A DNA stretch of 64,000 nucleotides, taken from the NCBI GenBank assembly GCA_034780895.1, contig JAUZTB010000001.1:105695163-105759162 (forward strand), in the 5' to 3' direction. This DNA is from Rhynchobatus australiae. Lineage: Eukaryota. Shown here piece after piece: positions 20,378 to 64,000 of the stretch (the first letter of the stretch is position 1; every line of letters starts with the position of its first letter). The translations under genes and the position numbers were made by a program. The notes below the pieces were generated by a model. It made no database searches. It was not told the origin of the DNA and was given only the letters and a program-made list of their open reading frames with translations.

Positions 20378-20550
20378 TCATTTATCTTGTGAAGATGACG
20401 GATGTTCAGTTGGGGGAAACTTGGGTAGAGGAAGCCGTGAAGGAAGGAGGCCACCAGCAATGTCTGAAAGTGGTCTATGTGGTAGGAAATTAGGCCGAGC
20501 AGGTGGGAAATTGCTCAGATATGGTCCTGGTGGTCGTAATTGATCTCTTA
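20378..20550 (-). CDS. MIA2: MIA2/cTAGE5 last coding exon
   Basis: tatttcag|TA AGA GAT CAA ... GAT AAA TGA; [26 protein letters not shown]...SSSQDK*. Confidence 0.8.
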
Positions 20551-35500: not shown

Positions 35501-38500
35501 ATAGATCTAGTCTTAACAGCCTTTTGGAGAACAAATTGCAGGTTTCCATTACAGTCTGTGTGAAGAAGTGCTTTCCAATATCCATAATAAATGTTCTAAC
35601 TCTAAGATTGTCCTCTTGTTCTGGACTTCCCCAAATTAGAAGTTTCTTCTTAACAACCAAGTAAATCTTAAATGCCCCAATTAGATCAACCCTTTACCAC
35701 CCCACNNNNNNNNNNNNNNNNNNNNNNNNNNNAATACAAGCTTGCTCCAGGCAACTTTCCCTTAAATAAGCTAAATAGAATAGAATCAGATCAGGCCTTG
35801 CATCTCAAAAACTAGGTGTACGTGGGCATGATCTGTGACTCTACAGCCCAATGTAAACATCACTATCATCAGTGACAATCCAACCTGGCTTAAAGGAACA
35901 TATTGAAGCAGCATCAAGACTAATCGAACAAGGTGTCAGCAGGGTGGAGCTACAACAGAAGTGCATGCATATTAAACAGTAGTAAACTACATTTGGAGCT
36001 AAGAAATATTACAACTGATCAGATCAAAGCTCTGCAGTCCTGAACATCCAGCTATGAATGGTGGGGGTAATAGAGCAGGAACAGCTCCATCCTCAACAAT
36101 AGTTAAGCCAGCAAGAGTATTGAAATGTTCATAAAACCTTCACCCAAAAATGACAAGGAAATTAAAGAATTCTGTGCCTAGTAAAATGAGTCAAGACCTA
36201 TCGGCCACAACAACACATTAGTTGTAGTGCTGAAGATGTGCTTCAGACGAGCTGAAGTCAACTAGTTCCAGCATAGCATTTACCTGACAACTGAAGACTG
36301 ACCAGCTACACTATCAACAAGCAGGGGAAATCCAATCCGCCTATGATTCGGGGGGAACTCAGCAGACCAGGTAGCAACCATGGAGAAAAGCAGGTGGTCA
36401 ACGTTTCAGGTCAGGGCCCTTCTTCAGGACTGAGAATAGGCAAAGTGGACACCCAATAATATAGGAGGGAAAAGCAGAGCAGTGGTAGGTGAACAAAAAG
36501 GGGAGGTGGGGTGGGCACAAGGTGGTGATAGGTAGATGCAGGTAAGAGATTGTGATAGGCAGGTGCGGGGGAGGAGGGGAGAGCAGATCCACCGGGGGAT
36601 GGGTCGAAGGTGAGGAAAAAAAGGGCTAGGTAAGGGATGAAGAGAAGAAGCACGGTGGGGGGGTGGTATCTAAAGTGGGACAATTCAATGTCCATGCCAT
36701 TAGGCTGCAAGGTTCCAAAAAAGGAAAATGAGGTGCTGTTGCTCTTCCATCTTCATTTTCCATCTTGGAACCCTGCAGCCCAAAGGCATGAATATTGAGT
36801 TCTCCCACTTTAGGTAATCCCACCCACCCCCCCACCATAGCCCTTTTTTTCCCTCTCTCTTCTTACCTTTGNNNNNNNNNNNNNNNNNNNNNNNNNNNNN
36901 NNNNNNNNNNNNNNNNNNNNNNNNNNNNNNNNNNNNNNNNNNNNNNNNNNNNNNNNNNNNNNNNNNNNNNNAGGGGATGGGTCAAAGGTGAGGAGGAAAA
37001 AAGGTAGAAAAAAAAGAGATAGGCTAGGAAAGTAAAGACACTATGATGCTGTCCCTTTCCTAACCTCTCTCTCTTTTTTCTACCTTTTTTCCTCCTTACC
37101 TTTTCTTTTCGAAGTGATGGAGGATGAGAGGCGACTTGATAGGAGGTATACAAGATTATGAGAGGCAGAGACAGAGTGGACAGCCATCATCTTTTCCCCA
37201 GGGCGATAATGGCCAATACCTGAGGTCACTCGTTTAAGATGCGTGGAAGAAAGTTCAGGGGAGATGCCAGAGGTAGTTTTTTTTTTAAAACACAGAGTGG
37301 TGGGTACCTTGACCAATAATGGATGAAAGAAAAATAGAGGGCTATGGGAGGTGAAGGAGAGAGGGGGATAGATTGAATGTGGATAAGGTTTATATAGGTT
37401 GGCACAACATTGTGCGCAGAAGGGTCTTACTGTGCTGTACTGTTCTATGCTGAGATTAAGGAGGCCAACTCCAAGATATTGGTACAGGAGTTCATTAGAA
37501 CAGTGTCCTGCCCCTTGAACTCCCATCCACAATAAATCCAAAAGTCAACATATTTAATAGTGTTCAGTTCCATTCACAACTCCTGAATTAGTGAAAACAA
37601 AAGAGACTGCAGATGCTGGAATCTGGAGCAAAAAAGAAATCTGCTGGAGGAACTCAGCAGGTCAGGCAGCATCTGTAGAGAGAAATGAGCAGTTGACATT
37701 TCAGGTCACAACCCTTCATCTGGATTGTCCATTGCTTCCTCAAATAATGAACTAGACTGTGGCTACCTGCAACATGCTTTAATATGTGGTGAGAAACATT
37801 TATGTAGGTCAACAGGCAATGACCTCCAATTTACATTAATTATCGTTGTTGAATTCCCCACCGACAGCATCCACTGATCACCATTGATCTGAATAAACCA
37901 TGGAAAAATACTGTGACCAGAAGAACAGGTTAAAGGCTGGCCGTTCTAAGAAAGGTGACACACTTCCTAACAACCAGAGCCTTCCTAACAGTTAAAAGGT
38001 ATAAGTGTGATTGCATATATTGCACCACCCTGCACCAGTAGAACTTGCAAGAGCATTCCAAATCTTGACATCATTCAAGACAAAGCAGACTGCCTAATCA
38101 CTCTATCCACACCTCAATTATGCATTCCTTTCAAAGCCAGCACAACATAGCTAGCATGCATCCCACCTACCAGCAGTGGAGCAATTTTACTAATCCACTG
38201 GTACCTCCTAACCCCACAAACTCTACAGTTTAAAAAGTCTACAGGAGCAGGCACACAGAAACATCATGATATCCAAGTTACACCACACTGTCATGTAGAA
38301 ATATGACCATTTCTTCATTGGTGCTGATTAAAATGTTGGCAATCTTTATGTGGCTGCACTGTAAAGATACCTTTGCCATGCAGAATGTAGTCCAAGACCA
38401 AGGGAAAATGTCTGTGTAGTTACAAAATACAACACAAGCTTAGACAGGGATGGGCAATAGATGTCAACTTGTCTCCAAGACCAATATATCCTTTGAGATG

Positions 38501-41500
38501 AGGTGTCCCGAACCAAAAGATGTAATCAAACAAGATCTTGACGAGGGTAGAAAACAAATTCNNNNNNNNNNNNNNNNNNNNNNNNNNNNNNNNNNNNNNN
38601 NNNNNNNNNNNNNNNNNNNNNNNNNNNNNNNNNNNNNNNNNNNNNNNNNNNNNNNNNNTCAGGCATTTCTGCATACAGATCACAAAATCTCTATTCCTAC
38701 CAAGTCCTTGTTTTCAAAAGATTTAAAAACACTGAAGAAATTTCCCTGCATGGAACTCCATCTGCCATAATTTCACATCCCCTTTGGTTCAGCTTCACTT
38801 CTGCCTGTGAAAAACTCGGGGGGAGGGGATTGTTCCGTTAAATAAAAGAGCCCTGTCATGCTGAGATTTCCTCCTCCCTGCGGCCCCCCCCNNNNNNNNN
38901 NCTCCGTATCTCTCCATTGCTTCAGTCTGTCCGTTCCTCCCTCCTCCCCCCCCCCCAAGTTATTTTAAATAACAAAAGCAACAATGTGGCAACACTCCAT
39001 ATATTTGCACATTTGGCACTGGTGAGGAACTAAATAATTGGAATAATGTTTCAAGTACTGCCAATCATAACAGGACAGACACTTCATGCAATACAAGTAC
39101 CATTAAGCAGAACTGAAAAAGTATGTCCAGAATTTTCTTTTTAGAAACTAAGAAAGCAAATGCTATAGCAAGGACATAATGCTAGTAAACTTCACCACAT
39201 GACATACCTTAGCAACATAGATCAATTTTTCAATTTTTTGCTTCTGTCGTTCTTCTGATATTTCTGACACACATTAAAAAAAACATTTTAGACAAGTTTC
39301 CTCAGACTCTAAAATTTAAGATATACAAGAGAAAAGGAGATCAACACCAACTTTCTTGAAAATAATGAGCAGTCACAATATATAAAGCATGGGTGGAAGA
39401 AATTAGTAAAGACTAACTTCACAAGAATTACTTTTTCCACGTCCTTCTAATTATAACTCGGGACAATATTAAAAAAAATTTTAAAAAAAAGTTTTTTTCT
39501 CATCTTAAGGAAAGAAGTTCCCCTCAGCATCTCTAGCATCCATTTCCAGATGTCCCAAAGTACTTTACAGTCAAATAAATACTTCTGAAGGACATTACTG
39601 TGGTAATGAAATCTACACAGCACCCAAGCAGGAAGAAATCTGAGAGCATCATGAAATTATTAGAGGAACCCCTTGTTTTCTGTAAATGTTTTTTATATTA
39701 TAAACCAATAATTTTCCCTGGTGTAATAACATTACTATGCAAGTATTAATCAATGATTTGAGGAATTACCCTTAATATAAATGGGCTAATGTTTAGTATT
39801 TGAAAACAATGAACTCTAAAGTTATCAATGTCATGGCCCAAAGCAACATCTGCCAAGTTAAATTNNNNNNNNNNTAATTTGCATCCTTAAAGGGAATACT
39901 AGATTGGTACTTTCTTGTATGGTTCTGCTAGTGCCTGTGGTTGAAGAACCCACTGTGGAATTTCTCCCCTCCTTCAGCCTGCTCCATTATAACTGTATTG
40001 GACATGATGTCTCGGCATCCAAATCTGAATGACGTCAGCTCAAATTAGTTTTCAGAGCTCATCTTGATTTCTGTTTACATACATTTATTTTTTACCATTA
40101 CACACTTTACCGACTTCATCTCAATCAAATCTAATGATCTTGGCACTTTAACCACATTATTTTTAGGGTCTTACTATTGAGACCATTATGCTGCTCATCT
40201 TCTATTTTAACTGTTCAGTGTTCTGTATTTCTATATTGTATCTCTCAGTATGTATAAATACAAATATCATTATATGTGTTCCTTTAAAATTATTTATTCC
40301 TCCATTGAACCAAACAAATACTATTGACTGCATCATGAGGACTGGATTCACAAGTGTTTTCAACATTTTATAATTCAAAATTTGAAGACTCCAGTTTGAT
40401 GGGTGTTTTAGTACAATGGATTTCCCCCCCACATATTAAGATATACAATTAAGTAAATACAGACATTTTAAAAGCACTAGTTTACCTACTTGACACTTAT
40501 CAGCATGTTGTCTCATCCAACTAAGCGGAAGGTAGAGAAACTAATTAAGTGGTAAGCATAACTCTAAAAATTGTGCAATGCATGACAATTCAGTTATTTT
40601 GAATATTTTAAAATGTCCATTTTCTCAATAAAGAGAACACTATTACGTGACACATGAAATGCTTGCACTGAGGTGACCATGTGGATAGACTTAGCACAGT
40701 ATCTATGTTATCAAACGGACCAGAAAGTGCCTCAGAATTCTAAAAACTGAAACACAGGGCCGAAAGGTTGGAGCTGATGATCTAGACTGACACTCCTTTA
40801 CAAGATACATGATAAATTGGAGCTCCATTAATGGATCAAGCAAGCAGGCATTAAAGACTGGAAAGTATTTTTCACGGTGTGACCAATGTTTCTCTGATAA
40901 CTGATAAAAAAAAATCGGAGGATTCCATGTAATACTTAAAGCTGGGCATCACTGCCATGTACTAATTGAATGCTATTTGCAGCAAATATTATGGATTGAA
41001 TATTTAGTAATTTTTAGTTTTATAATATATTATATTATATATAAATTTATATATTGTATATTATAAAAGTTTAGTAATAATAAATGTCTAGTAATTTCAG
41101 TAAGTCNNNNNNNNNNNNNNNNNNNNNNNNNNNNNNNNNNNNNNNNNNNNNNNNNNNNNNNNNNNNNNNNNNNNNNNNNNNNNNNNNNNNNNNNNNNNNN
41201 NNNNNNCTCCAGCATTTGTGCTTCTTTTACCTGCTTTAATGGGTTGTTGGACATACTCTACAAACCTGATTCTATCTGATCAATAAGAAGTTTTGATTTT
41301 TCACAGCCATTTGCTGCGATGCGTAGATCGAGAACTATGTCAAAGATCTGATGCACCTGCCATACAATATTTACAATCCCAAACATTCACCAAATCCAAC
41401 ATCTGTTGGCAAATCGATTTAGCTATTCAGGTAGGATCTGAGTAAAAGTAGTTCAAAAGCAAATTTTTTTTAAAATCATAAGGCACTGATTCACTGCCTT

Positions 41501-44500
41501 AATGCTTCTCATTTTCAGTTCTAATGCATATTTTATCCAAGTTATTACCTTCTGCGGGATTATCCTCTTCAGCTAGATTCCACAGTTTCATCTTTAGAAG
41601 GCAATCTGTCAGAGACTGAGAGAAAGGGGTTTTTAAAATGAACATTTGAGAGCATGGATACATTTGCAGTATTATTTGATTTCACTGGAACAAATCTCAC
41701 CTTCACTTCATTCTCTTTACATGCAAGAACCTCCCTTATATCCTTCTGTGATTTTGTACCTAATTTAATATGTTCAGTAAGCTCATTGTAACGCTCGTTC
41801 CACCCTTCAGATTCTTGCAACAGCTACAGACAGAAAAGTCACAATTAGACTAATGGATTGAACAAGTATTTTCTTTAAAAGAAAAGCATACTGGAACACT
41901 AAGATTGCTTTCAAAACATCTTGTATCATTAAAATTATTAAAACAATTCTAAAAGAGTAAAATGTCTTAAAAAAATACATCACAAGTTTTAGACAGACAG
42001 CTTGATTCACTAATCGAGCACACTTCCTCAATAAATTCCATCATGTGAGAAGCCCTGCAACAACATGGGTAAACATTGACCATTCAAAATTGTGCCACAT
42101 AAGTGGAGGTTTAGGTGTCAAAATATTGCTGTTAACAAAAGNNNNNNNNNNNNNNNNNNNNNNNNNNNNNNNNNNNNNNNNNNNNNNNNNNNNNNNNNNN
42201 NNNNNNNNNNNNNNNNNNNNNNNNNNNNNNNNNNNNNNNNNATGTGTTGCAAAAACAAAAGCTGTGAAGCAAATAAAGTGATTTTCTTAATTCAAAGACA
42301 GGATGCAGTGGATTGCAAAATCACAGGTTAGTGCCTGTGATCTACACAAGATATAGGACTTGTGGCTTGAAGGCTGGACATCCCAGAGAGGGAGGAAAAA
42401 GGTATCAAACACACTCTCAATGCCTTTAAGTCATTAACTGTTGTACAATTAGGTCAGGGTAAAGGCTGAATTGGTTGCTATTCTGCAGGTAGTGCAATGT
42501 ATAGGTCAAGATGGCTCAAAGAATATGGAAAATACTACAACGGGAAAACAGTGACAAAAGATTTCAATCAAGTCAAAATAAAGTAAATTTTAATTATCTT
42601 TAAACTCATCTCCATTTCATAGTCATTACACTATCACTTGCAATTGCTCAATGCTACTCTGCACATATATCAGCAAGCAGCAATCAGAGGAAAAGAATTC
42701 AAATGGAAAGTAACTTTTGTTTAGTGCAGGAGTTGATATGAAAGGTTTGGTGAAAAATATATCAGTCATACTTGGTCTCTGCTTTGTTTGAGATGATAAT
42801 TCTCTTCTTTTGCAGCTTGAAAAGATTCCTGGTGTTTTGCATGATTAGTCTGAATTTCTTTTAACTCCTTTTTAGCCTTAAAATACAAAGAGGAATATAA
42901 GTATTTCTTCTGCCACTCTGTAGAAGTGTTTTATCACTTCTTGTATCCTCACCTCTTCGACTTGGATCTTGAGATTTTGAGCTTCATTTTCCAGCACACT
43001 TAAATTTGCTTGAATTTCTGTTATCTGGATGGAGGAAAAATACAACCAAGTCTGCACAGAGTCTATATTATTATTGTATTAAACATAATTGATCATTTTA
43101 GAATCTATAAGATTAACAAATAGTTGGTTAAAATACCAGTCGAATTATTACATACCAGATCACTTTGTTGAGATCTTGTTTGTTTTTCTCCCTCTAAATC
43201 CTGTGTGAACTGATCAATTGTTTGTCTAAGAGTGTCATTTGATTTATCCAATTTGGCATAAGTTTCCTTAAAAAAAAAATTTATTACGAAATTAATTTCT
43301 AATACATCACCATTAAATACAAGCACATCAAAAAATATTTAATCCTAAAGACAAGTCTTTTGTCTCTATGTGAAAACAAAAATAAAGGTATTTCAATTGA
43401 AACTAGATCAAAATTATATATTTTTTTAAATCATAAACTCTTCATAATAAGCTCACTTTACACCCTTTCCTCTGAATATGGATAAGAGATCAATTTAAGA
43501 AATAAAGAAGGGAACTCAGTTGATCAACAGTTAAATAATGTAATGCAAGTCATAAAGGAAACCTTAGGTTTAAAATTCTAAAGATGTTCCAAATTGTAGA
43601 CGATATCATGGTGAATGGGAGATCACAAACTGTCTTGTGTAAATTCTTCCATGATGCGGAATGAAGACAGCAGTTAAATCAGTGATGAGAAAACTCTATT
43701 AACTTGGGTCGGTGGTTCTAGAAGGCTTTGAACTTAAATCAAAGTGCTCACACTACAGTACCTACCACAAATGGGTTAGACGGACCATACTTGAATTGGT
43801 TATCAATATACAGTGATAATTACATGTTTAAAATAATCACTCATCCATTTTGCAACTTATAGTACTAATTTTCTTCAAATATAATTGATTTGCCTTTACT
43901 ATTTGAAAACAAAAAAAATACAGAAACTGGAAATCATAAATCAAAACAGAAAATGCTGGAATGAATCAGTCTTCAATCTGTATCACTTTCCAGATGCTNN
44001 NNNNNNNNNNNNNNNNNNNNNNNNNNNNNNNNNNNNNNNNNNNNNNNNNNNNNNNNNNNNNNNNNNNNNNNNNNNNNNNNNNNNNNNNNNNNNNNNNNTG
44101 TATCACTTTCCAGATGCTGCCTGACCTGGTGAGTTTTACCAGCATTTTGTTTTTATCCTCATACTATTCATCTGGCCTAAACCCAAGGTATCAGTATAAA
44201 ATTCATAAAAAGTTCTGTGCCTTGTTTGTCTTAACCATGTTAGTTTTCTTCTTCCCTGACAGATAAACCCATCTTGATCAATCTACCAATACTACTCTAG
44301 TCCTTTTTGAAACTTGAACCCCAGTCTCACCCACTCCAATTCTCGACGGCCCAAGCAACACAATGAGCTTTAAAATATATATGTGCACTGCAGCTCTGTC
44401 AGAAACCTCTTCTAATCTGAAGACTTGCCAGTTTTATAATCACATTCATCCTATATTCACAGAAAATGTAATCAGGAAAGATCATAAAAATGATCCCTTT

Positions 44501-47500
44501 TAAAAAAAAATCCACTTCCATAAGTATTTGGGTTATAGCCCAAAACACTCCACTCCAATTTGTCATCCTTCAAGCACATCCTTCAAACAATCTTAGAATA
44601 TATTTCCAGAAGCACATTTAACAGTATTTTTACCTGAAGATGCAAAGTCTTTGTTTCTGTTGATTGTTTTAAACCAGCAGCATCCTTGACAGAGGCTTCA
44701 AATTCATTGTACTAAAACCAGAAGGGCAACTATTGTAAATTAGGGATAACTAAATTATTCGGATAAATTTTAAGTTTGATTTCCTTTTTTTACAGTTATG
44801 ATAATAAATTAAGATCAAATGGTGATAATCTAATTGAGTTGAAGTTGCAGCAACACTTCAGTTACATCTAACATTAGAAGGACACATCTCAATGTATTTT
44901 ATTTTCCATTAGCACAGTTCTGTAATACTGCTTCTAAATAAAGATAACATTTTAAAATCTAGTTATACCATAATGGGACCTATCCTGCATTTTCAGTGTT
45001 GATCCAATTCTGCTATTGCTCTGAATGCACATTCAGTAAAGCACTATGATACTTCTTGTGTTACATTGTGCATGCAGTCTGCAATAAGAAGTAATAGATC
45101 AACCATACTGAGACAATCCATTGCTCAAAATCTGAATTAGGCTTGCACTCAAATTTTCTGGTTAGAAGATACTTCTAAGCACTGCAGAATCAACCACAGT
45201 ACAAAATCGCTTGGATTATTTAAAATCCAATATCAATAGAACAGATCCAATTATCAATAGAACAGATTAACAGGTTGTGCTACAGCTCACAAGTGCTCAA
45301 TGTTAAGAAGCTGTCACTGAAAACATCTATCCAGAGCACCATTTACTCCTGTCACAGGTATTGCACAGAATTTAAATGACCTACATAGTTATTTTAATAT
45401 ATTCCTTGCAGAGTTACGGGGAGTGATTGGATATGCTCGGCGTGTTTTTCCTGGAGTGAAGGAGACTGAGGGGAGACCCGATAGATGTATGCAAGATTAT
45501 GAGAGGCATAGATAGAGTAGACAGTCAAAATCTTTTTCCCCGTGGTAGGGCTATCAAAAACAATAGGGCATAGTTTTAAGGTGAGAGGTAGGAGTTTTAA
45601 AGGAAACCCCAAGGTACAGTTTTGTTTTTATTTTTATAGAGAGAATAGCTGATATCTGGAACATGCTGCCAGAGGAGTTGGTGCAGTCAGATACAATTAC
45701 TACATTCATGGGGCATTTAGACAGACACTTAAATAGGCAAGGTGTAGATGGATACAATCTCAAAGTGGGCAAATGGGATTAGTGTGGATGGGCAAAAAAG
45801 TGGGTGTGGACACTGTGGGCAAAAGGGCCCGTGTGTGTGCTGTACAACTCTCTAGTCCTACCTCTGGAGTTGGTGTTTTCAATATCAAATTTTCTTTCAA
45901 AAAAAAAATTGAGAGTTAAAATAGCTTTCCTGACTGCTTGCTTGATTAGTTCTTGACTGATTTAATATTAATTATCTGCTGTGTGCAAATAACTATGTGA
46001 ATGAATTTGTTTGACTCTGTCACTGTTTGGTGTGATTGTAATAATTCAATTTCCAAAGAGGCACAGTGAAAAAGAAGTATTTTACAAGTAACATGGGATT
46101 TCCCTACTTAAGTTTCAAATGGAAATAGAATATGCACCTTGTACTGAGAATAAGTATAAGTAACAAACTCAAATAAAAAGTGCTACCTGTGTTAATTTAA
46201 TTTCTAATCGTGTCATCAAAAGTACACTGAAGCTGTTGTACAATAAGAGTGACAATTCAACAATTGTAACAAATAACAAAAAGAAAACACAAAATAGGAT
46301 CAAAAGTTGCACATACCTTTTGTTTNNNNNNNNNNAGAAACTGTTTCTGCAAGTTGTTTCTCTCTCCCTAAAGAAATGAAAATTTGGCAAATTTAAAATC
46401 TGGACTGATCAGATTACGGTGTAAATTAACTGAAAAGAACATTACTCTGCAGCTTACCCATGTATCTTCTGCTTTTCACCTATTAAGAGTAAGCAAAACA
46501 GTGGCAGTTAATGTATCACATGAATGTCCTTTTTAAGAAAAAATCTAGTGCATCAAAGACTGCCTGCAGGGCTTTTGATGCTCAATGTTATATTTAGCAA
46601 TCCAACATGCAAATACACTTACTGCCTGGCAAGTCCTGTAGATGAAAAGCAATGTGGTGAAAATCCCCAACAGAATTGAAATCAGGAACAACTCAGTGCA
46701 AGGACCATGGAGGTTTGCTGAAGCTCCCAGATCTTCAGATAATGTATCCATCATTGTTCGATAGGACTGCAAGTAAAATATTGGCATTCTCATCAAAGTA
46801 GGGTCAACACCACATGCACTAACATATCTAGTAATATTCAGTGTGTGAGGAAGAGTAACAGAGAAGATAATGCTAGCAATAGGAGTAGCAGCTCTAGGAG
46901 CTATACCAAGCACATCGAAAGTATTAACAATGGATACCAGGGTCAAGGCCAATATTATCAACCAGCCAATTCCTAAAACACTGGTGGGTGGAGCATGGCA
47001 GTCCTACCGCAAACATTTATATCTCAAAAATACTATCAAGAGGGCCAGTGGGCATGATATTCCAGGAGCATTAAAATATGACCAGCACTAATGGATATGC
47101 TGTTAACAACAATATCAAAGAGCGTGGAGTCAAATCAAATGTGCCAGAGGAGGTAATGTTACTATCCCTGCTGGTACCAGGGGATTTGATATTGCCAGTA
47201 GAACTTAGGGTGTAGTGTGCTATCAAGAGGTTAAAAGTGGAAAGTAGGGTTCCATGAGTTTTGATAGGATAACCAATATTTACATAAATAACTTGGACTT
47301 TGCAATTGAAAATATAATTTAACATGCGGACACATCACATCATGGTGCATGGGTGGCACAGAAGAGCAATATGATAAGAACTTGTAAAATGACCATGTAA
47401 CCGGCAAATAAATTTTCATACAGATATAAGAACTGATACATTTAGTAGGAAAAGTAAGACCATGCTAAGATACAGGAGCAGAATTAGGCTATTTGGCCCT

Positions 47501-56500: not shown

Positions 56501-59500
56501 AGAAAAAATATCAATGCTGTAAAGTAACATTCAGAAAATCAAAATACATTCATGTAACTAGAACAATGCGCAACAGAGACATTGTAAAGGTTGTTGCAAT
56601 ATTTTTTCTAGTTTACAATATACTTACATTTTGGATGAAATGATCAACTATTATCATGAAGTTTTGTAGATCGAGGTCAAAGACACTGCCCAGTATATAA
56701 CCAGCTGTTTCCTCAACACTTGCTTCATATTCTGTAAAAGAAAATGATAAATGAAAAACATTGTCTTTAAACTTTACTGTGCACATGAATGGTTTTGTAC
56801 TTTACACTCACCAATGTCATTGTCAGTTGGTGTTCCAACTCTTGGATCATCAGTTACTGTTGATTTTTTAACCTCACTTAAATGTGTGGATATTGTTCTC
56901 TCTTCAGTCTGGTAGTAACTACTTTCCTTAGTTCTTACATCCTGTGATTCCTTCTGTAATTGATTTCCTAATTTACTTTCCACTACAACCTCGGTAGTTG
57001 TTTTCTCTGAATCAGTTATTTTGTCTGACAGGTTCCAGGTCAGTGTTTCCAGCACTTGTCTCTCCGTTATGTCCGAGATGACGTCCTTGGCTCCCTTCTG
57101 CTCCTGCACATGCTTGATCATTTCAACAGATTTTTCAAAAACTTCTGAAATTTGCTTTTTGCTTGTAACTGCAGCGTTTGAAGTGTCACCCGAACTGAAA
57201 GCATCTGCAAAGTAAAGAATTAAATTATTTGTGCCCTCCAGGTATTTGCAAAGATATGATGACAGAGGCGTTCAGATGCTTACCCTCATTTGAACGATCT
57301 AAAAGTTGACAGCAAAAATTCTGGAAAGTATTGTACAGGTACTTTTGTGGTGCGTTACACCATCTGATATAGACACGAATTAAAAATAAATACTGCTTTT
57401 ATTCAGCAATTATGAGGTGAACAATAACTAAAATATACAATTCTTTCTAATTATAATAAAACTGAAAAGAAGGTGACCATGAATAAAATATCAAATGTTA
57501 CAACTGTTATAGTTTGTCACCCTGAACCACTTAATGTGACTTTTGAGGCTTTGAGAGTTACTGTGTGTTGCCTTCACTCTTTAGTTTTTTTTGTTTTAAT
57601 TTTCCTTTGCGATATTTGTTTTGTTGCTACAGGCTTTATAAGGAAGTTCAGTTGACATAACTATGTAAGAAGGTACACAGAAATAGAAGGCATTCAGCCT
57701 CACGAGCTTGTCCTCCCATTCAGTTTCATCCAGGATGATACAAGGTGCAGATTGTGCCCTTGGCTTGAAAACCTGCACAACTTGACTGGGAATTTCAGCA
57801 CAGATGTTGGAGGCTTTACAGGATTTTCCACTATACTCAAACCTGAATTCCCATAAACAACGCTGATGAATAAATTTTGGTACTAATCAAAGCACAAGTG
57901 ATCAAGACACTACATTTATGTTCTGTAGATCCTGGATTATCTATAAGGCTGCAAGTTACAAGTTAAAATTTTGCATAGTCTATTGACCATTACAACTCGC
58001 CTTTTGTTCTCTCTGCCTATCCTTCCTTTCTCCACAACCAATTTTTTTTTAATCTCCAACTTTTCTCATTGTTATGAAAAGTCATTGACCTGAACCTATT
58101 ATCGTTTCTCTCATCATGTTACCCAACCTGCATTTAATGTTCTTTTTCAGATTTCTAGCATCCGCAGCATTTTGCTTTTGGGTAATCTACTTCTGGATTT
58201 TCGGCAGTTTCACTACCCGACCTACCAACAGAACGACGTGGCCTTTTCTGGCTTACCCGCCACTTCAATAGGAAAGGATTGTCCTCCGTCTGACTTTTTT
58301 TTATAGAGATATGGCCAAAACAGTGAAACCAGGTCTCACTGCTGCACATCTGTTGCAATGCGTTATGCTTCCTTTGAATTTGAAATGTTCCTTATATCTG
58401 AACTTCCTGAATATTTAAAATGCCAAATACTCTGTTCCTTTAAGATTATGTTAAGTCATCTCCTTCCCCACATTTAGCTGTATGATGAAAACTTCAGTTT
58501 CAATTGCCAGCTTTTGCAGGGTGAGCAGACCTTGACTGAAATGGCAATGAAGGCATTTCTTGTCTTCAAGCCTCTGCAGTAGAGTAGCGGAAATTTTCCT
58601 GGTCTCGATCAACACTTATGTAGCACATAAGTGGTTGATAATGTGAGAACAGGATTATATTTAGCTGCGATTATCTTATATTTGACTACCTTCATTCATA
58701 GTTTGGGATCTTACATGAAGGATAGTCTGTGGTAACTGTAGAACCACAGCCAGCAGGAGTCACAATGTTAGACTGGAAGAAAATACATTAAATTCAATGC
58801 CAATGTCTTTGATAATTATGGTTCTTGAACAAATGACAGCTGAGTTGCACACCAGTCGTGTACATTGTTGTTCTATACCTTTAAACTGGCAAGTGAATTA
58901 ATTAGAGAATGCCTGATATGAAAGATTGGAAAAAAATAATCACTGTTGCATGAAGAGGGGTCTTCTGATACTGGGTTATTAGAGTTAAGGCACATTGTTT
59001 GGAATGCTGTAGGTCACTGTTAAACCTGACCCAGAACTGATGCTACCATTGTGTACAAGTTTTCCATTTCAAATGATAAACCATCACAACTAATAGATAC
59101 AAAATAGAAATCAAAAACATATTAAAAAAGAGTGGTTGTTCTTGTCTTTTAAAAGATGCAAAATGTACTATTCCCATGAAGTCAACTCCCAATCCTTTTG
59201 ATCATACCTGATTTAGTGACATTTGAGGTGCATTTTCATTTTGGTGGCAGAAATATCTTGTAGCTTTTGTAACATTTCTATATGTTCCCTTGCTTTCACC
59301 TTATGTTCAATGTTTACTTCATTCTTGTCATATTAGAGGTCTTTCTTTTGTTAGACACCTCTTTAAAAAGTTTACTTTATGCAGAATATCATTTAAACCT
59401 TTACAATAAAACTCCAATAATCTGGTATCCAATTATTCAGAAATCCTGACGGTTTGGAATCTGGCTCATCAGATTTTGTTTTCTATATTCCTTTTGAAAA

Positions 59501-62500
59501 TCAGTGGAGTCCCTTTTGCCGTGCTCCCGTTATACTCACCAGGGTCCTATTTTCCATACTTGCTTTGAACTCCCTGCAATCCCATTTCTCACATTCCCTT
59601 CAAACTAAAGAGGGCCCTGGTTCCACACTCACTTTAAACTCACCACATCCCCATTTCCTGCACTCCTTTTAAAGTTACTGAGTTCACTGGAAAAATTATT
59701 AAACTGCTGTGTATTATTTAAAAAAAAATATGAATGAAAAGGGTGTTGGGGTATCAATAGCAGTAATACCTAATTGCTCAAAGGATCTGCTGGTCAGTCA
59801 CCAAAGTCCCAAGGGTGGCAGATTATCGGAGTTTTATCGTAATCTTTTCTCATTCTCTAGATTCTCAAGAGTCTCTTCCAATTGTATGAGCCTGACTTTT
59901 TTTGAAAGCATCTTTCCAAAGACTGTAGCTGTGCAGATATCATATGTTTTCTCAAAAAGTCATGATCGTTAAGGAGGTGTGTACCGTCAACAGATGTACA
60001 TTTTACTCTGAACCTCTTAAGCTGGATTTTCACTTAGCCTAGAAGTGACCCTATTCCCTGAAACACAGAAGTACTGTCTTGGCAATCACTGGATTCTATA
60101 CCTTTTGATGTCAGTGATTCTTCTTCAGTGCCACTTTCAGGTTGACTTGTAGAAATGGTTCCATGTATATCTTCAGCAGTGGCATCTGGACTGGTATCAA
60201 CTTCTGCACTTTGTCTGCTTGCCTCTTTCCTTTCGTGAACAGAAGTCATTATCAGCTGTCCAGAATTACTTTGTGTTTCATCCTTCTGTAAGTTTGCAGA
60301 AGTGGATTCAATGGACAACTGTGTTGTTCCTTCATTGCTCATGTTATCAGCTTCTGCATAGTCATCATTTACTTTATATTTTGTTTCTTTGATGACATGC
60401 TGTGGTTTAATTTTAGTATTAGTGTCTTGGCGTTTACTAGAAAGTACTGCAGGTGGATTCGCATCCTCAGAAGGCAATGAATTCAAATGTTCTACCATAG
60501 CTTCAGTTTCCAGAGAATTATGCACCTTGTTACTTTTCTCAGTGCTTGTGGGAGTGACACTGATGAGAGATGCAGTTGTTCCTTCCTCTGATGAATCTAC
60601 TGTGGAATCTAAGTCAACAAATTCATTTTCTGATTCCAAATATACCCCTTTATCTTCCATAATGTTTTGTCGATAGGAAGAGTTTTCTTTGTCATTATAT
60701 GAAACTGTTCTCTCTTCAGGCTGTGAACTTGATACATGATGTGGTAAAGTTTGTTCTCCGTTGTGAGTTCTGTCCTTCTCCAAGGATTCCGCATTTTCTG
60801 TTACAGTGTGCTTTCCTGATTTAAAATCTGACATTATACATTGTTTCTGTAAAACATAGTCTTTGTCATTAAACATTTCCTTCACCAGAAATTTGCTCTT
60901 ATCTGAGATGGCATGTATCAAAACATTTGTCTGGAGAATATCTTCATTAACATGCAAATTTTCAGAAAAAGTGTCTTCCCCTTGTTCTGAAGTAGCAAGC
61001 CACTTAGGTTCTGAATTAGAAGTTGCCTGTTTTACTTGCAAGTTTTGTTCATCACGCATTTTCAGTGAAAAGGGCTTTTCAGCATCTGCAACAAGCTCAT
61101 TAGTTGCTGATTTTAAGAGTTGACATTCTTTTGTGACAGATTCTTCTCCGTGCAAGCATTCACTATGATCTGAAGGATGCTGATTGGATTCAGAATCTAA
61201 TGTTAAAGTTTGGTGCTGCAAGGCATTTCTGTCACCAGATGTTTCTTCCTTTGACAGATCCCTAGTATGATCTGAAACCTGCTGCACAGTTTGTATCTGC
61301 CATGTTTCATCATACAATTGTTTCTCTAGTGAAGGATCATTGACATTTGTAGCTATGACCCCTTTATCATTCCTATTTAGTTGAGGCATTTCTTGTTTTT
61401 TATCCTTCTCAGACAACAAATTATAATGGTCTGAAGTTTGCTCTTTTGCTGAGCTTAAATCTGNNNNNNNNNNNNNNNNNNNNNNNNNNNNNNNNNNNNN
61501 NNNNNNNNNNNNNNNNNNNNNNNNNNNNNNNNNNNNNNNNNNNNATTCAAAACTGAAGTTTTGCTGTTCATTATCAGTTTGTGTCTGGGGTAAAAGCTTG
61601 TTGTTACCTGAAGCATCAAGCTGTTCAACTTCCAAGGCTGGTATAATATCTTCCTGTTGTGAGGTTTGTTGCTTACGGTGTAATTTTTCCTCTGCCCGAT
61701 GCTGATCATTATCTGTAATAGGATTCTGTTGTAGGTCTGAATTTATTACCTGTTCTTGTGAGAACTCTTTTACATCTGGCAACTCATTCACTGACATAGG
61801 ATCAGTGGCATTTGAAGCAAGTTGTTCTGATTTCGGTCTGGATACTAAATTATCTTGTGAAACATCACCTTCAACTTGCAATTTATCCCACACTGAATGG
61901 TCTGCATTACCTGCCATCGTAAGAAGTGCAGTTTCTGAACCTGGTTCTTTATTAGATGCCCATTTGGACTGCATTGTTAAACGTTGTTCTTCTTCAGAAA
62001 AACTTTCTGGTGCTAAAGCATCATGTTTACTCACGATAGTAATCTGTTGCACTTCTGAGGTTAGGTGCAAAACCTCCTGTTCACCATGTAGTTTTTCTCC
62101 AGAATGTAGATTTTCATACGGCACAGTCTTTGTATCATCTGAAATATGTTGCTTAATTTCTGAAGTATACATCAAATGTCCTTGCAAACTTTCATCTTTA
62201 TGGAGACTTTCCTGTGTTAATGCTTTATTATGACCCAAGAAATCTGAGTCTGGTATTAAATTTTTCTCTTGTGATTCCTGAACACCTTGTAACTTTGATG
62301 TTTTGCCATCAAAACTGTTTTTTAACCCATTCATAGAAAGTCTTGATTGTGCACTTTCACTCTTTGTTTCCCTATATTCCTTCTCAGATTGCTGTAAGTA
62401 TTCAGACTGACAGGTGACATCATTCTCCACCATATTTAGACATTGTTTTGGTGACTGAATTGTGTCTTCATTTATTAATGAACCAGTAATCGATGCAACT

Positions 62501-64000
62501 CTACTTGTAACTGATTTCAATGTGGAAGAACTCTCCTCAGACTTGGCATTCATTGTGTCTTCTTTCTTATCCCTAATGGTGTGTTTCTTTCTTTCTTCTA
62601 GTGGGTTGGAAGCAAAACTATCTTCATTGGTTTGATGAAACATTAATATATCTTTTAAACCAAAGGTGACCTTTTGTGATTTTGATCTATCCACATCCAA
62701 TGTAGTGTCCTTGCTATTTTCAACAATGGTTTCTTTAGTTTTGTCTGGTAAGGAAGAAACCTGATCTTCATTTCCTTGACCAAAGCCTAACATCTCACTT
62801 AAGCTAAAGGGAGACCATTGCGAATTTGATTCATCTGTATCTCCTGGATTCCTTTTATTTCCATCAAAATTTTGAGTTTCTTCTGAGGTTCTGAAAGTCT
62901 GACCCCCACCATCACTACTAAATCTGAAGATATCACTTACTGCATTCAAGTTAACCCACCAGGATTCTGACTGGTCATTATCATTTCCACCTTCTTCCCC
63001 GGTGACTTTTGTTTCTTCTAATATGTCGGAATCCTTAGCGTCATTGATTTGCCCAAACCATAATTTATCACTTAAACCAAACAAAGATTGAACATTACTC
63101 ATTAAGTTTTGATTAACTTCGTCAATATTTTCTGATTGACTATACTTTAGGCTTGAATCATCTGCCACTGAATGTTCAGACGTTTTCTTTCCTGACTGAG
63201 TGACTAAGGTTTCACTTGGGTCTGTTGAATCATCAGCAAGATATTTTGTATTTTCATGCTTATTCTCTTCACCTTCTTTGGAAGATAAAACATCATCTGG
63301 TAAATCACTGTTGAGATTTAGCAATTGTGACAAACCCCCAATCCAACCTGACATTCCAGCACCAAGGATTCCTTTATCCTCATAATACCCACTTTTATGT
63401 CCCTCTTCTGACAACACAGAGTCCTCATCATTGTCTAATGGAATTTTTCGACTTTTAAAAGAGTTTAGCTGTACAGACTGGTCAGTTGGTTCCACAACCT
63501 TTTCATCCTTATTACCTTCCAGACCAAACCACCCACTAATTCTAGATCCAATCCAATCAGATTCCTCTTGCACAAATTTAGATACTTCATTACTTTCCAT
63601 TGTAATAGGATTATCTTCACTGATTTCTTGCCCTGGATGTTCATCTTTTTCTGCACCAATATTTTCATTATGCACAGATTCAGGAAGATTGAGTAGGTTC
63701 AATTCATTATTATCTGTATGTCTGGAGCCACTTTCATCATTTAATTGATTCTGATGATCAGCTGGTGAAAGAAATTCATTTATTTGTACATTCTCATCAG
63801 GTGCTAGACTGTTTTCAAGTTTCTCTTTACCAAAGTTCATTTCTAGCTCTGTGGTATGATGTGTTCCTTGAATCTGTTTTTTATAATGATCGACTAAATT
63901 GTCCACAGGTTCAGTTTTGACAGAATTACCTTCATAAACCTGGTTGTTTTTATTAGGCTTAGTTTCATGTCCTAATGTGGCTTTTCTTTCTTCTGGCATT
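20378..64000 (-). CDS. MIA2: MIA2/cTAGE5 (TALI) ER-exit-site cargo receptor; 5' end (signal peptide, SH3-like domain) lies beyond the window
   Basis: Exon chain with consistent phases giving an acidic luminal region, a transmembrane segment, coiled coils ([18 protein letters not shown]; SPYGPSP; SDSGSLSP.W) and a Pro-rich tail. Tail-to-tail with FBXO33, as human MIA2 is. Confidence 0.93.
21100..22420. mobile_element. Cluster of old non-LTR fragments and a PLE tail (about 22030-22115)
   Basis: aattaggaatggataataaatgatggccttgccagcgacatc LINE 3' end near 21280-21330; tgaagggtctcggctcaaaatgtcaactg...atagatgctgcc tail. Confidence 0.4.
24095..24323 (-). CDS. MIA2: MIA2/cTAGE5 proline-rich exon
   Basis: cttgcag|GAC TCA TTA ... 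ATG GGA A|gtaagt; [25 protein letters not shown]...GLPPHPSMG. Confidence 0.85.
24520..24590 (-). CDS. MIA2: MIA2/cTAGE5 exon
   Basis: tgtgtag|AT GGA CGC CCC ... GAT CGT|gtaagt; [24 protein letters not shown]. Confidence 0.8.
24930..25490 (+). mobile_element. CR1 LINE 3' fragment
   Basis: catctggagtaccgtgtccagttttgg (HLEY.VQFW), tctagaaccaagggtc, tggaattctctacc, CR1 3' UTR ending ttctatgtttc. Confidence 0.75.
26003..26118 (-). pseudogene. Frameshifted MIA2/cTAGE5 exon (pseudo-exon or sequencing error)
   Basis: [16 protein letters not shown] resembles the recalled cTAGE5 RLSGPAE exon; in-frame TAG after a homopolymer run; donor CAG|gtacgg. Confidence 0.65.
26330..26482 (-). CDS. MIA2: MIA2/cTAGE5 exon
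   Basis: gcccatag|CG AGA GGT CCA ... TCA CCA G|gtatga; [26 protein letters not shown]. Confidence 0.9.
26670..27240 (-). mobile_element. Degenerate CR1 LINE 3' fragment
   Basis: aatctcccctcagcatcctctgttatagagaaaataataccagcctagccaatct is the reverse complement of the CR1 RLGLFSL..R.LRGD segment. Confidence 0.6.
27279..27410 (-). CDS. MIA2: MIA2/cTAGE5 exon
   Basis: [38 protein letters not shown]; phase 1-1, GT-AG. Confidence 0.93.
27663..27772 (-). CDS. MIA2: MIA2/cTAGE5 exon
   Basis: [36 protein letters not shown]; phase 2-1. Confidence 0.88.
29071..29138 (-). CDS. MIA2: MIA2/cTAGE5 exon
   Basis: [22 protein letters not shown]; ttgtag| ... AA|gtaagt. Confidence 0.93.
29664..29699 (-). CDS. 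MIA2: MIA2/cTAGE5 36-nt exon
   Basis: [12 protein letters not shown]; tatag| ... TGG|gtgagt. Confidence 0.95.
30732..30792 (-). CDS. MIA2: MIA2/cTAGE5 exon
   Basis: [20 protein letters not shown]; ttgcag| ... |gtatgt. Confidence 0.93.
30870..30971 (-). CDS. MIA2: MIA2/cTAGE5 exon
   Basis: [33 protein letters not shown]; phase 2-2. Confidence 0.93.
31664..31802 (-). CDS. MIA2: MIA2/cTAGE5 exon
   Basis: [45 protein letters not shown]; phase 1-2. Confidence 0.93.
32930..33640 (+). mobile_element. CR1 LINE 3' fragments with a SINE tail (about 33240-33300) and a gap
   Basis: catctggagtatc...ttctggttgccc, aagctggaaagagtgcagaaaagattcacaaagatgct ([12 protein letters not shown]); 3' end gggccaaagggcctgtttttgtgctgtataa present twice. 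Confidence 0.7.
34721..34811 (-). CDS. MIA2: MIA2/cTAGE5 exon
   Basis: [30 protein letters not shown]; phase 0-1. Confidence 0.93.
34955..35217 (-). mobile_element. tRNA-derived SINE (V-SINE/HE1-like), near full length
   Basis: Minus strand starts ggtagtgtaacgg (A-box-like), ggttcaattcc (B box), then ggagtttgtacgttctcccc core; ends aataaagatatctt. Confidence 0.8.
35330..35700 (-). mobile_element. CR1 LINE 3' fragment
   Basis: ORF 35463-35660 ...[14 protein letters not shown] resembles CR1 ORF2 end (FFTQRVV..WN.L). Confidence 0.6.
36350..37030 (-). mobile_element. Penelope-like element 3' fragment, rearranged around a gap
   Basis: [17 protein letters not shown] motif, pyrimidine-rich tail and hammerhead-like cctgaagaagggccctgacctgaaacgttga. 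Confidence 0.7.
37110..37450 (+). mobile_element. CR1 LINE 3' fragment
   Basis: atgagaggcgacttgataggaggtatacaagattatgagaggca (RGDLI.VYKIMRG); tail gaagggtcttactgtgctgtactgttctatg. Confidence 0.75.
39208..39263 (-). CDS. MIA2: MIA2/cTAGE5 exon
   Basis: [18 protein letters not shown]|gtatgt; an alternative acceptor would start the exon at 39254. Confidence 0.85.
41549..41615 (-). CDS. MIA2: MIA2/cTAGE5 exon
   Basis: ctctcag|[23 protein letters not shown]|gtaata. Confidence 0.9.
41701..41823 (-). CDS. MIA2: MIA2/cTAGE5 exon
   Basis: [41 protein letters not shown]|gtgaga. Confidence 0.93.
42772..42876 (-). CDS. MIA2: MIA2/cTAGE5 exon
   Basis: [35 protein letters not shown]; phase 0-0. Confidence 0.9.
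42953..43024 (-). CDS. MIA2: MIA2/cTAGE5 exon
   Basis: [24 protein letters not shown]; phase 0-0. Confidence 0.9.
43156..43266 (-). CDS. MIA2: MIA2/cTAGE5 exon
   Basis: [37 protein letters not shown]|gtatgt. Confidence 0.9.
44634..44711 (-). CDS. MIA2: MIA2/cTAGE5 exon
   Basis: ttttag|[26 protein letters not shown]|gtaaaa. Confidence 0.85.
45410..45850 (+). mobile_element. CR1 LINE 3' fragment
   Basis: ggagactgaggggagacccgatagatgtatgcaagattatgagaggcatagatagagtagac ([18 protein letters not shown]) plus 3' UTR. Confidence 0.8.
46317..46367 (-). CDS. MIA2: MIA2/cTAGE5 exon interrupted by an undersized 10-N gap
   Basis: ctttag|GG AGA GAG AAA CAA CTT GCA GAA (GREKQLAE) ... AAA CAA AAG|gtatgt. 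Confidence 0.85.
46458..46479 (-). CDS. MIA2: MIA2/cTAGE5 22-nt exon
   Basis: taatag|GTG AAA AGC AGA AGA TAC ATG G|gtaagc (VKSRRYM). Confidence 0.9.
46623..46766 (-). CDS. MIA2: MIA2/cTAGE5 transmembrane exon
   Basis: [48 protein letters not shown]; hydrophobic segment; phase 0-0. Confidence 0.9.
49014..49580. promoter_or_regulatory. Intronic CpG island, probable cTAGE5 isoform promoter
   Basis: CpG-dense; YY1-like AAGATGGCGGC on the minus strand at about 49206-49216; lies just upstream of the transmembrane exon, where the mammalian cTAGE5 first exon is. Confidence 0.75.
49034..49072 (-). CDS. MIA2: Putative cTAGE5 alternative first coding exon ([13 protein letters not shown])
   Basis: gcgATGG Kozak context in the CpG island; phase-0 CCG|gcaagt GC donor, or a donor hidden in the adjacent gap. 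Confidence 0.55.
49670..50310. mobile_element. Ancient DeuSINE-like fragments
   Basis: ggaaacgttgcagccaaattgcacacagtaagttcctcaaaacagtaatg and gggatgt..caaa resemble the recalled Deu-SINE central domain; related piece at 39540-39620. Confidence 0.45.
50390..50770 (+). mobile_element. CR1 LINE 3' fragment
   Basis: tataagattttgagaggcatggatag...aataccagagggcatgcatttaaggtgagaggg ([10 protein letters not shown]); tail gggccgaagggcctgttcccgtgctgt. Confidence 0.8.
51059..51141. repeat. Near-perfect inverted repeat: 38-bp arms, 7-nt loop
   Basis: gtattcctgggttagttgcccctttgttccagctactc / tttgctg / gagtagctagagcaaaggggcaactaatccaggaatac; 3 non-Watson-Crick positions. Confidence 0.9.
51372..51900. repeat. 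GC-rich minisatellite, about 16 units of 25, 34 or 36 bp
   Basis: Repeated core ggacctgaaaggg; full unit ggacctgaaagggcgacggcaggctggagctcctgc. Confidence 0.95.
52830..53416 (+). mobile_element. Penelope-like element 3' end with hammerhead-like tail
   Basis: [30 protein letters not shown], then cagtcctgatgaagggtctcagcccaaaacgttgactg and atagatgctgcctgacctgctga. Confidence 0.8.
53417..54480 (-). mobile_element. CR1 LINE fragment interrupted by a Rex1-type insertion
   Basis: [37 protein letters not shown]...LRGDLI (54098-54333) and [29 protein letters not shown] (53417-53630). Confidence 0.85.
53632..54097 (+). mobile_element. Rex1/Babar-type LINE 3' end
   Basis: [32 protein letters not shown]...PSGRRYKSL; ends aataataaaccaattccaattc. 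Confidence 0.75.
54700..56080. mobile_element. CR1-type RT fragment (minus) with a CR1 3' fragment (plus, about 55130-55755) inside it
   Basis: [40 protein letters not shown] (RT region); plus-strand [11 protein letters not shown], tattgtgtgcagttctgg and CR1 tail. Confidence 0.7.
56628..56731 (-). CDS. MIA2: MIA2 exon preceding the transmembrane exon
   Basis: ttttacag|AA TAT GAA GCA ... ATC CAA AAT|gtaagt; [34 protein letters not shown]; phase 0 into 46766. Confidence 0.8.
56812..57204 (-). CDS. MIA2: MIA2 luminal exon, 393 nt
   Basis: ctttgcag|AT GCT TTC AGT ... GAC ATT G|gtgagt; open acidic frame, phase 1-1. Confidence 0.8.
59208..60033 (-). pseudogene. Degenerate 3' continuation of the MIA2 giant exon
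   Basis: Coding-like fragments [20 protein letters not shown] / [17 protein letters not shown] / [12 protein letters not shown] separated by stops, frameshifts and a MITE; ends in CAG|gtatga. Confidence 0.55.
59404..59839. mobile_element. Tc1/mariner-pogo type MITE, 436 bp
   Basis: Left end CAATAAAACTCCAATAATCTG versus reverse-complemented right end CGATAAAACTCCGATAATCTG (19/21 identical); TA on both sides (59402-59403, 59840-59841). Confidence 0.85.
60034..64000 (-). CDS. MIA2: MIA2 giant luminal exon, open past the window end; probable donor at 60102, read-through stop at 60034
   Basis: 1321-codon acidic ORF with recalled MIA2 motifs [12 protein letters not shown] and SFKSRKI; AAA G|gtatag at 60102 is phase 1, matching the exon at 57204. 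Confidence 0.88.
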   Translation of the reverse strand, partial: MPEERKATLGHETKPNKNNQVYEGNSVKTEPVDNLVDHYKKQIQGTHHTTELEMNFGKEKLENSLAPDENVQINEFLSPADHQNQLNDESGSRHTDNNELNLLNLPESVHNENIGAEKDEHPGQEISEDNPITMESNEVSKFVQEESDWIGSRISGWFGLEGNKDEKVVEPTDQSVQLNSFKSRKIPLDNDEDSVLSEEGHKSGYYEDKGILGAGMSGWIGGLSQLLNLNSDLPDDVLSSKEGEENKHENTKYLADDSTDPSETLVTQSGKKTSEHSVADDSSLKYSQSENIDEVNQNLMSNVQSLFGLSDKLWFGQINDAKDSDILEETKVTGEEGGNDNDQSESWWVNLNAVSDIFRFSSDGGGQTFRTSEETQNFDGNKRNPGDTDESNSQWSPFSLSEMLGFGQGNEDQVSSLPDKTKETIVENSKDTTLDVDRSKSQKVTFGLKDILMFHQTNEDSFASNPLEERKKHTIRDKKEDTMNAKSEESSSTLKSVTSRVASITGSLINEDTIQSPKQCLNMVENDVTCQSEYLQQSEKEYRETKSESAQSRLSMNGLKNSFDGKTSKLQGVQESQEKNLIPDSDFLGHNKALTQESLHKDESLQGHLMYTSEIKQHISDDTKTVPYENLHSGEKLHGEQEVLHLTSEVQQITIVSKHDALAPESFSEEEQRLTMQSKWASNKEPGSETALLTMAGNADHSVWDKLQVEGDVSQDNLVSRPKSEQLASNATDPMSVNELPDVKEFSQEQVINSDLQQNPITDNDQHRAEEKLHRKQQTSQQEDIIPALEVEQLDASGNNKLLPQTQTDNEQQNFSFEXXXXXXXXXXXXXXXXXXXXXXXXXXXXDLSSAKEQTSDHYNLLSEKDKKQEMPQLNRNDKGVIATNVNDPSLEKQLYDETWQIQTVQQVSDHTRDLSKEETSGDRNALQHQTLTLDSESNQHPSDHSECLHGEESVTKECQLLKSATNELVADAEKPFSLKMRDEQNLQVKQATSNSEPKWLATSEQGEDTFSENLHVNEDILQTNVLIHAISDKSKFLVKEMFNDKDYVLQKQCIMSDFKSGKHTVTENAESLEKDRTHNGEQTLPHHVSSSQPEERTVSYNDKENSSYRQNIMEDKGVYLESENEFVDLDSTVDSSEEGTTASLISVTPTSTEKSNKVHNSLETEAMVEHLNSLPSEDANPPAVLSSKRQDTNTKIKPQHVIKETKYKVNDDYAEADNMSNEGTTQLSIESTSANLQKDETQSNSGQLIMTSVHERKEASRQSAEVDTSPDATAEDIHGTISTSQPESGTEEESLTSKGIESSDCQDSTSVFQGIGSLLG

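Follow-up and report, generated by a model that had tools for sequence, protein, structure and literature searches.

The window analysed here, 64,000 nucleotides (nt) of the genome of Rhynchobatus australiae, is, judged by its homologies, the batoid MIA2/cTAGE5 (TALI) locus, read from the minus strand. The subject of this report is the 3' end of the giant exon of that gene, beyond which lies what appears to be a stretch of former coding sequence, now part of an intron and split by a transposable element.

The giant exon and its decayed 3' end

The identity of the locus was established by protein comparison. With the end of the giant open reading frame (ORF) as a query, all seven matches were chondrichthyan, six of them named cTAGE5 or MIA2 and one hypothetical. 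The giant exon was recovered as a single high-scoring segment pair (HSP) in tblastn, with 61-64% identity to the proteins of Narcine, Hemitrygon and Mobula, and the downstream exons matched MIA2 of Pristis pectinata (P0052) in HSPs that follow gene order from 46778 to 20381 and are 68-100% identical (most 84-98%), these exons being nearer to Pristis than to the stingray Hemitrygon. Orthologues possess an N-terminal SH3/MOTH domain, and the part of this gene that corresponds to it lies outside the window edge. Pfam searches returned nothing close to the cut-off for six window translations and only SH3 above the cut-off for three full proteins, and no Rfam match was found in 57100-60300. The features concerned are the following.

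60102..64000, minus strand: MIA2/TALI giant exon in its present extent; it begins beyond the window edge and contains an 81-N gap (61464-61544)
60034..60101, minus strand: 22 codons read through past the exon end, closed by TAA at 60036-60034, where the shark has Glu; 15/22 identical to P0031, a genomic ORF of the skate cluster
59840..60033, minus strand: 5' half of the fossil tail, with a run of seven A residues (A7) and about 1 nt missing beside the insertion site of the element
59404..59839, no strand assigned: 436-bp non-autonomous element with terminal inverted repeats, a miniature inverted-repeat transposable element (MITE), with a TA target duplication at 59841-40 and 59403-02
59196..59401, minus strand: 3' half of the fossil tail, with a frameshift between 59372 and 59351, TAA at 59335-59333 and a +1 shift near 59236
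56812..57204, minus strand: next MIA2 exon (DAFSS...), with a phase-1 acceptor at 57204; 84% identical to Pristis
20381..46766, minus strand: shared cTAGE5 exons for the transmembrane segment, coiled coils and proline-rich domain; one short exon enters a 10-N gap

An initial annotation of this DNA had reported an ORF of more than 3.9 kb that stays open to a phase-1 donor (AAA G/GTATAG, the slash marking the exon end) and meets a TAA about 22 codons later. The donor is present, with 60102 as its last exon base, and the stop follows after exactly 22 codons; from the window edge to this TAA the minus-strand frame encodes 1321 aa, its continuity across the 81-N gap depending on the size of the gap. 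The coding-like pieces noted further on (FLRKH... and later ones), the A7 frameshift and the TA-flanked 436-bp MITE that divides them (59839-59404) were likewise found in the sequence.

With the MITE excluded and frameshifts allowed for, residues 1489-1644 of the Heptranchias protein align to 60102-59197 with 82/149 positions identical, and Heterodontus aligns to the same stretch with 84/153, such that the tail and the final 156-160 residues encoded by the shark giant exon are approximately 55% identical. The frameshift-aware scores for the two sharks were 300 and 303, compared with a mean of 30 and a maximum of 48 in 25 base shuffles. When the query was read through the stop, shark MIA2 proteins covered 100% of it and batoid proteins at most 84%; in tblastn, shark proteins run on to 59899 and resume at 59371-59234, and batoid proteins break off at about 60102 and continue at 57204. 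We read 60101-59196 as the former 3' end of the MIA2/TALI giant exon in a decayed state. It would have turned into intron in the ancestor that rays and skates share, as splicing moved to an upstream in-frame donor, and we place the probability of this reading as a whole at roughly 0.85. Without the MITE, the released sequence amounts to 468 nt, or 156 codons, close to the 450 nt of intronised coding sequence first proposed, and shark, chimaera and bony-vertebrate proteins support the donor shift.

The lesions of the tail were compared with other sequence data. Contigs from run X1, possibly the source sample, reproduce 59000-59413 and 59745-60400 with 0 differences, and contigs from run X3, which represents the same organism in another sample and study, do so for 59160-59349 and 59359-59692; over these stretches, the stops and frameshifts are thus not assembly errors. 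Three close relatives (B, D and E) are about 92-97% identical to the window in this region. The A7 run (59903-59897), a +2 frameshift, is A6 in relative B and an in-frame A5 in relatives D and E. For D and E, sites are called unchanged when they are not among the differences listed (40 rows for each, with 93 and 3 further rows in the two tables); on this basis, relative E has no change at either stop or at the 3' frameshifts, and relative D shows neither a change at the first stop nor a 3' indel. Further stops at 59363 and 59351 hinge on where the 59372-59351 frameshift is placed. By the pattern among relatives, the frameshift in the A run and the loss of GT at the old donor (see below) would be younger than the lesions common to D and E.

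The element within the tail has the features of a MITE, being short and of high copy, with terminal inverted repeats that match at 19/22 nt, a target duplication and no transposase; given the TA duplication, it is presumably of the Tc1/mariner type. In each run, hundreds of contigs matched its ends, and loose ends lay at 59402/59407 and 59836. The same insertion was found in relatives B, D and E, the contigs of which enter the MITE at the identical place, and no second copy was detected in the 64-kb window. Two further observations concern the element itself: its ends are far commoner than its middle in the sequencing runs, and 59552-59673 contains a 53-nt direct repeat (72% identity, 69-nt spacing) together with a 15-nt inverted pair.

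Splice donors and the probable loss in batoids

The following donor sites of the giant exon bear on how the tail was released.

60096..60104, minus strand: derived donor AAG/GTATAG, last exon base 60102; no change in relatives D and E among the differences listed
59190..59198, minus strand: ancestral donor position 59196/59195, reading AAA/GGATTG in the window, with no GT
59202..59210, minus strand: donor-like CAG/GTATGA (59208), 12 nt inside the ancestral exon; GTATAA in relatives D and E
63925..63933, minus strand: early alternative phase-1 donor AAG/GTAATT, last exon base 63930; putatively used in this species
61603..61611, minus strand: middle alternative phase-1 donor CAG/GTAACA, last exon base 61608; putatively used in this species

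At the position of 60102, sharks have Arg-Asp whereas batoids have Lys-Gly, which suggests that an A to G change (Asp GAT to Gly GGT) likely created the new GT and with it AAG/GTATAG. The older donor can be placed from the other side. Shark and chimaera exons end in TMK, TIK, SIK, TIE or STK before Asp or Gly, and the old phase-1 donor was accordingly positioned at 59196/59195; as the residue that follows is Asp or Gly, sharks must have G at -1. Relatives D and E read AAA/GTATTG there, with GT where predicted and A instead of the required G. This donor would therefore have lost its -1 G and, in the lineage of R. australiae, its GT as well. Because the new and old donors are both phase 1, the join from 60102 to 57204 would preserve the frame while removing 156 codons, and the released 468 nt would then have collected a stop, the MITE and frameshifts.

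The shift is not confined to the present genome. Among annotated batoid proteins that contain the upstream anchor, 17/17 join SK/D or SK/G, which is the 60102-to-57204 junction; these proteins come from eight species in three orders and include skates, an electric ray, stingrays and devil rays. The domain that the tail encodes is missing from the long isoforms of all eight ray and skate species (8/8), and it is carried by 7/7 shark species with a long form, by the chimaera, the coelacanth and the paddlefish. Since chimaera and bony fishes, as outgroups, retain it, the loss would map to the batoid stem. The initial annotation had named two observations that would count against its proposal, namely a lack of protein similarity to MIA2 or MIA3 once the MITE was excised and orthologous exons that also end at the equivalent of 60102. 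Similarity was found, and shark proteins continue through the segment; the batoid orthologues do end at the equivalent donor, and the loss is therefore not private to this genome. A skate-cluster genomic ORF (P0031) reads through SK-GIES... as far as the codon at which the window has its TAA; it likely ends there at a stop rather than at the edge of its contig. The long batoid TALI isoform is predicted to remain membrane-anchored without its luminal helical domain of approximately 130 residues.

Shorter isoforms provide a context for this loss. The 63930 donor matches the junction (NQVYE/D) of short TALI models of about 1030-1080 aa in rays and sharks, and the 61608 donor matches the junctions of Narcine X6 and Leucoraja X2, the middle TALI models in rays being about 1750-1900 aa. 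As these two donors match annotated shorter isoforms, only the longest form, even that of sharks, contains the domain, and the availability of shorter isoforms probably lowered the cost of losing it.

The domain missing from batoid TALI

The tail is the remnant of a conserved, predicted-helical luminal domain of approximately 130 residues for which no match was found in Pfam or the PDB. Relative to Heptranchias, sharks show 74-87% identity in its core, a level that exceeds that of the preceding 488 residues (57-72%) and marks it as a constrained island; the SH3/MOTH domain is 81-86% identical. A profile built from shark sequences alone recovered the chimaera (E 3e-42), the coelacanth (4e-20) and the paddlefish (2e-12), with reversed controls no better than 0.36. 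Applied to 1.84 billion proteins, it gave six hits, comprising two sharks, the coelacanth, the paddlefish MIA2 and two that were discarded as chance matches of repetitive or amphipathic sequence, P0047 and the snail protein P0048, the latter of which we take to consist of saposin-like repeats. No MIA3 was found in this search, in which the same profile also missed teleost MIA2, and a TANGO1 (MIA3) counterpart of the segment, as suggested by the initial annotation, is conjectural. Among the best 120 of 312 MIA2-type proteins, chosen by their MOTH domain, an iterated profile detected the domain in the chimaera and in 34/41 bony-vertebrate proteins of at least 1750 aa (bowfin, teleosts, newts and squamates), and in 6/64 shorter ones; the protein set included no long mammal or bird isoform and no clear MIA3.

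AlphaFold predicted six helices, with a pLDDT of 68 (56 with a shallow alignment). Pfam revealed no family common to more than two of 30 members of the domain, sequence searches of the PDB reached E-values of 0.37 and 0.13 at best, and two queries of the ESM Atlas gave no usable hit. Fold searches returned generic helical bundles only (best Foldseek E 1.0; VIA Z at most 8.9).

Annotated models of other fishes also vary in this region. MIA2 models of pipefishes (two Stigmatopora and Corythoichthys; P0091:1724-1775, P0100:1424-1470 and P0110:1326-1370) retain only the first helix of the domain, leaving it after ...TTILEEL or EAL, and Festucalex (P0093:1321-1457) has the whole domain; judged from these annotated proteins, the pipefish loss was likely independent and in frame. 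The coelacanth, paddlefish and killifish models (P0046, P0049 and P0069) end a few residues past the domain, running into the intron, and may be either split annotations or soluble forms.

Several points weigh against an intronised tail in the batoid stem. The 60102 donor scores 3.1, mid-range among the gene's own 19 donors (-1.3 to 5.9). Both the GAT to GGT change and the change of the -1 G are deduced from the amino acids of sharks, the batoid junctions are those of automated RefSeq models, and the 60102-57204 join in this species is a prediction from sequence, not from RNA. As to the domain, the shark-only profile reaches just 6/41 of the long bony-vertebrate proteins at E<0.001 (0 reversed controls); the remaining matches depend on the iterated profile, in which two gecko stretches were hand-seeded and squamates entered thereafter. 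Finally, a fully dead sequence need not favour synonymous change, and the tail leans that way: differences between the window and relative E were synonymous in the old frame at 12/24 sites (base-matched P 0.066), with 10/16 upstream of the MITE (P 0.016, the split having been chosen post hoc) and 2/8 downstream. Adding relative D gave 13/28 (P 0.11). This test left out the difference at the old donor and a further one where the placement of the frameshift is ambiguous. Over 59842-60102, the synonymous excess among close relatives is mild (P 0.016-0.045, post hoc) and may be due to chance.

Other features of the window lie away from the giant exon. F-box/LRR-like ORFs occupy 9343-16320 on the plus strand, tail to tail with MIA2, and presumably represent FBXO33, the neighbour of MIA2. 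A GC-rich tandem array with variable units of about 20-40 nt (CCCTTTCAGGTCCGC...) is found at 51400-51900, within the intron that precedes the cTAGE5 first-exon region, and a GC-rich island with an N gap at 48790-49560 is probably the cTAGE5-specific promoter and first exon.

Alternative explanations and known systems

The new GT and the position of the stop are both common to the skate and this genome, so that neither is demonstrably older. The stop may have come first: a Glu to TAA nonsense change would have disabled the long isoform, and fixation of the upstream GT would later have restored an in-frame, membrane-anchored protein. That relatives D and E still have GT at the old donor fits such a course, which nevertheless requires a null long isoform to last until its rescue; a single base change in an exon with several alternative phase-1 donors accounts for the loss in one step, and we regard the stop-first order as the less probable of the two. 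A causal role for the MITE, by insertion into the coding exon such that a cryptic upstream donor was forced into use, is improbable. The element does sit mid-domain and is common to R. australiae and relatives B, D and E, but all four carriers are close relatives, and the junction shift is also present in skates, stingrays and electric rays. The initial annotation had ended the ancestral coding exon at the good donor CAG/GTATGA (59208). The site exists, is phase 1 in the old frame and has the highest score (6.6) of the 329 GT sites in 64000-57300, but homology continues four codons beyond it, to ATC AAA ending at 59197, as do the shark and chimaera proteins, which have four more residues before the junction, and relatives D and E have GT at 59195-94; the end of the exon is therefore at 59196/59195. 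Splicing that includes premature stops leads to nonsense-mediated decay, and this would be the predicted fate of transcripts spliced at 59208 at present. That 59208 was the ancestral donor, or is used now, is very improbable, and the site likely arose by decay.

It had also been suggested that translation of the long isoform now ends at 60034, which would make it a soluble MIA2, uncoupled from cTAGE5. This is unlikely as the main product, since all 17 of the annotated batoid proteins with the upstream anchor continue into cTAGE5. A more limited form of the idea, in which some transcripts are read through past 60102, stop at TAA 60036-34 and end by intronic polyadenylation to yield a soluble MIA2 without the cTAGE5 anchor besides the spliced form, is doubtful but has points in its favour. 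The position of the stop is common to the skate, and the 22-codon tail is 15/22 identical compared with 105/208 upstream; a mild synonymous excess occurs upstream of the MITE, including 5/7 in the 22 codons (P 0.06); and the human locus makes MIA2, cTAGE5 and TALI isoforms (PMC8098853). The coelacanth, paddlefish and killifish models that end just past this exon point the same way, though they may be broken annotations. Set against these are the lack of a truncated batoid model among the proteins fetched, the distance from the stop to the nearest ATTAAA (1.9 kb downstream) and AATAAA (2.6 kb), and the continuation of the synonymous lean past the stop (5/9), where translation cannot explain it.

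If batoids lost the domain through an upstream move of the splice site, they would be natural deletion mutants for part of a receptor of lipoprotein export. The fossil suggests a second conserved luminal domain, switched by alternative donors within one giant exon and lost in a whole vertebrate clade; it offers a target of approximately 130 residues that can be deleted or assayed for binding, a character that marks the batoid clade and an example of intronisation on the scale of a domain in which both donors are still readable. Neither this domain nor its loss in batoids was found to be described in the literature searched, which lacked most subscription journals. A tentative extension, which we hold to be rather unlikely as a whole, is that long TALI has a second luminal helical domain of jawed-vertebrate age that binds cargo or lipid, and that batoids, through a one-base donor gain, and some pipefishes, independently, are natural knockouts that would tie the domain to a change in the export of bulky cargo or lipoproteins, with batoid read-through perhaps yielding a soluble MIA2. 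Any tie to the liver-lipid biology of batoids is speculation.

TALI, the isoform in which MIA2 is fused to cTAGE5 (Santos et al., 2016; PMC4862334), recruits ApoB lipoproteins to endoplasmic reticulum exit sites; zebrafish mia2 mutants are described as keeping yolk lipid (PMC12273961, PMC8098853). The locus described here has the same position and exon order, with luminal exons spliced to cTAGE5 exon 2 and the downstream exons intact (for the structure of medaka mia2, see PMC12702677). The parts of TALI named in the text consulted are the SH3/MOTH, transmembrane, coiled-coil and proline-rich regions, MOTH being the only luminal fold among them; the exon-terminal helical domain, present only in long isoforms and lost in batoids, would be an addition. 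Like the MOTH domain of TANGO1 and TALI, an N-terminal, SH3-derived barrel (PMC10119292), the lost element is a luminal folded element of the same protein; in contrast to that barrel, it is predicted to consist of helices throughout, sits about 1400 residues further on and gave no match in Pfam or the PDB. The conversion of coding sequence to intron by a new donor has already been described for human SMOX (53 aa) and NUB1 (14 aa) (PMC3538075), where a point change likewise makes a donor within a coding exon and conserved residues are removed in frame. The batoid case differs in that 156 codons are concerned, the loss is apparently constitutive and extends over four batoid lineages, and this genome no longer has a working donor at the old site, the released sequence persisting as a readable fossil that holds a MITE. 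The process of intronisation is therefore known, and the batoid locus is probably a clade-wide, domain-scale case of it, which exposes an apparently uncatalogued luminal domain of long TALI.

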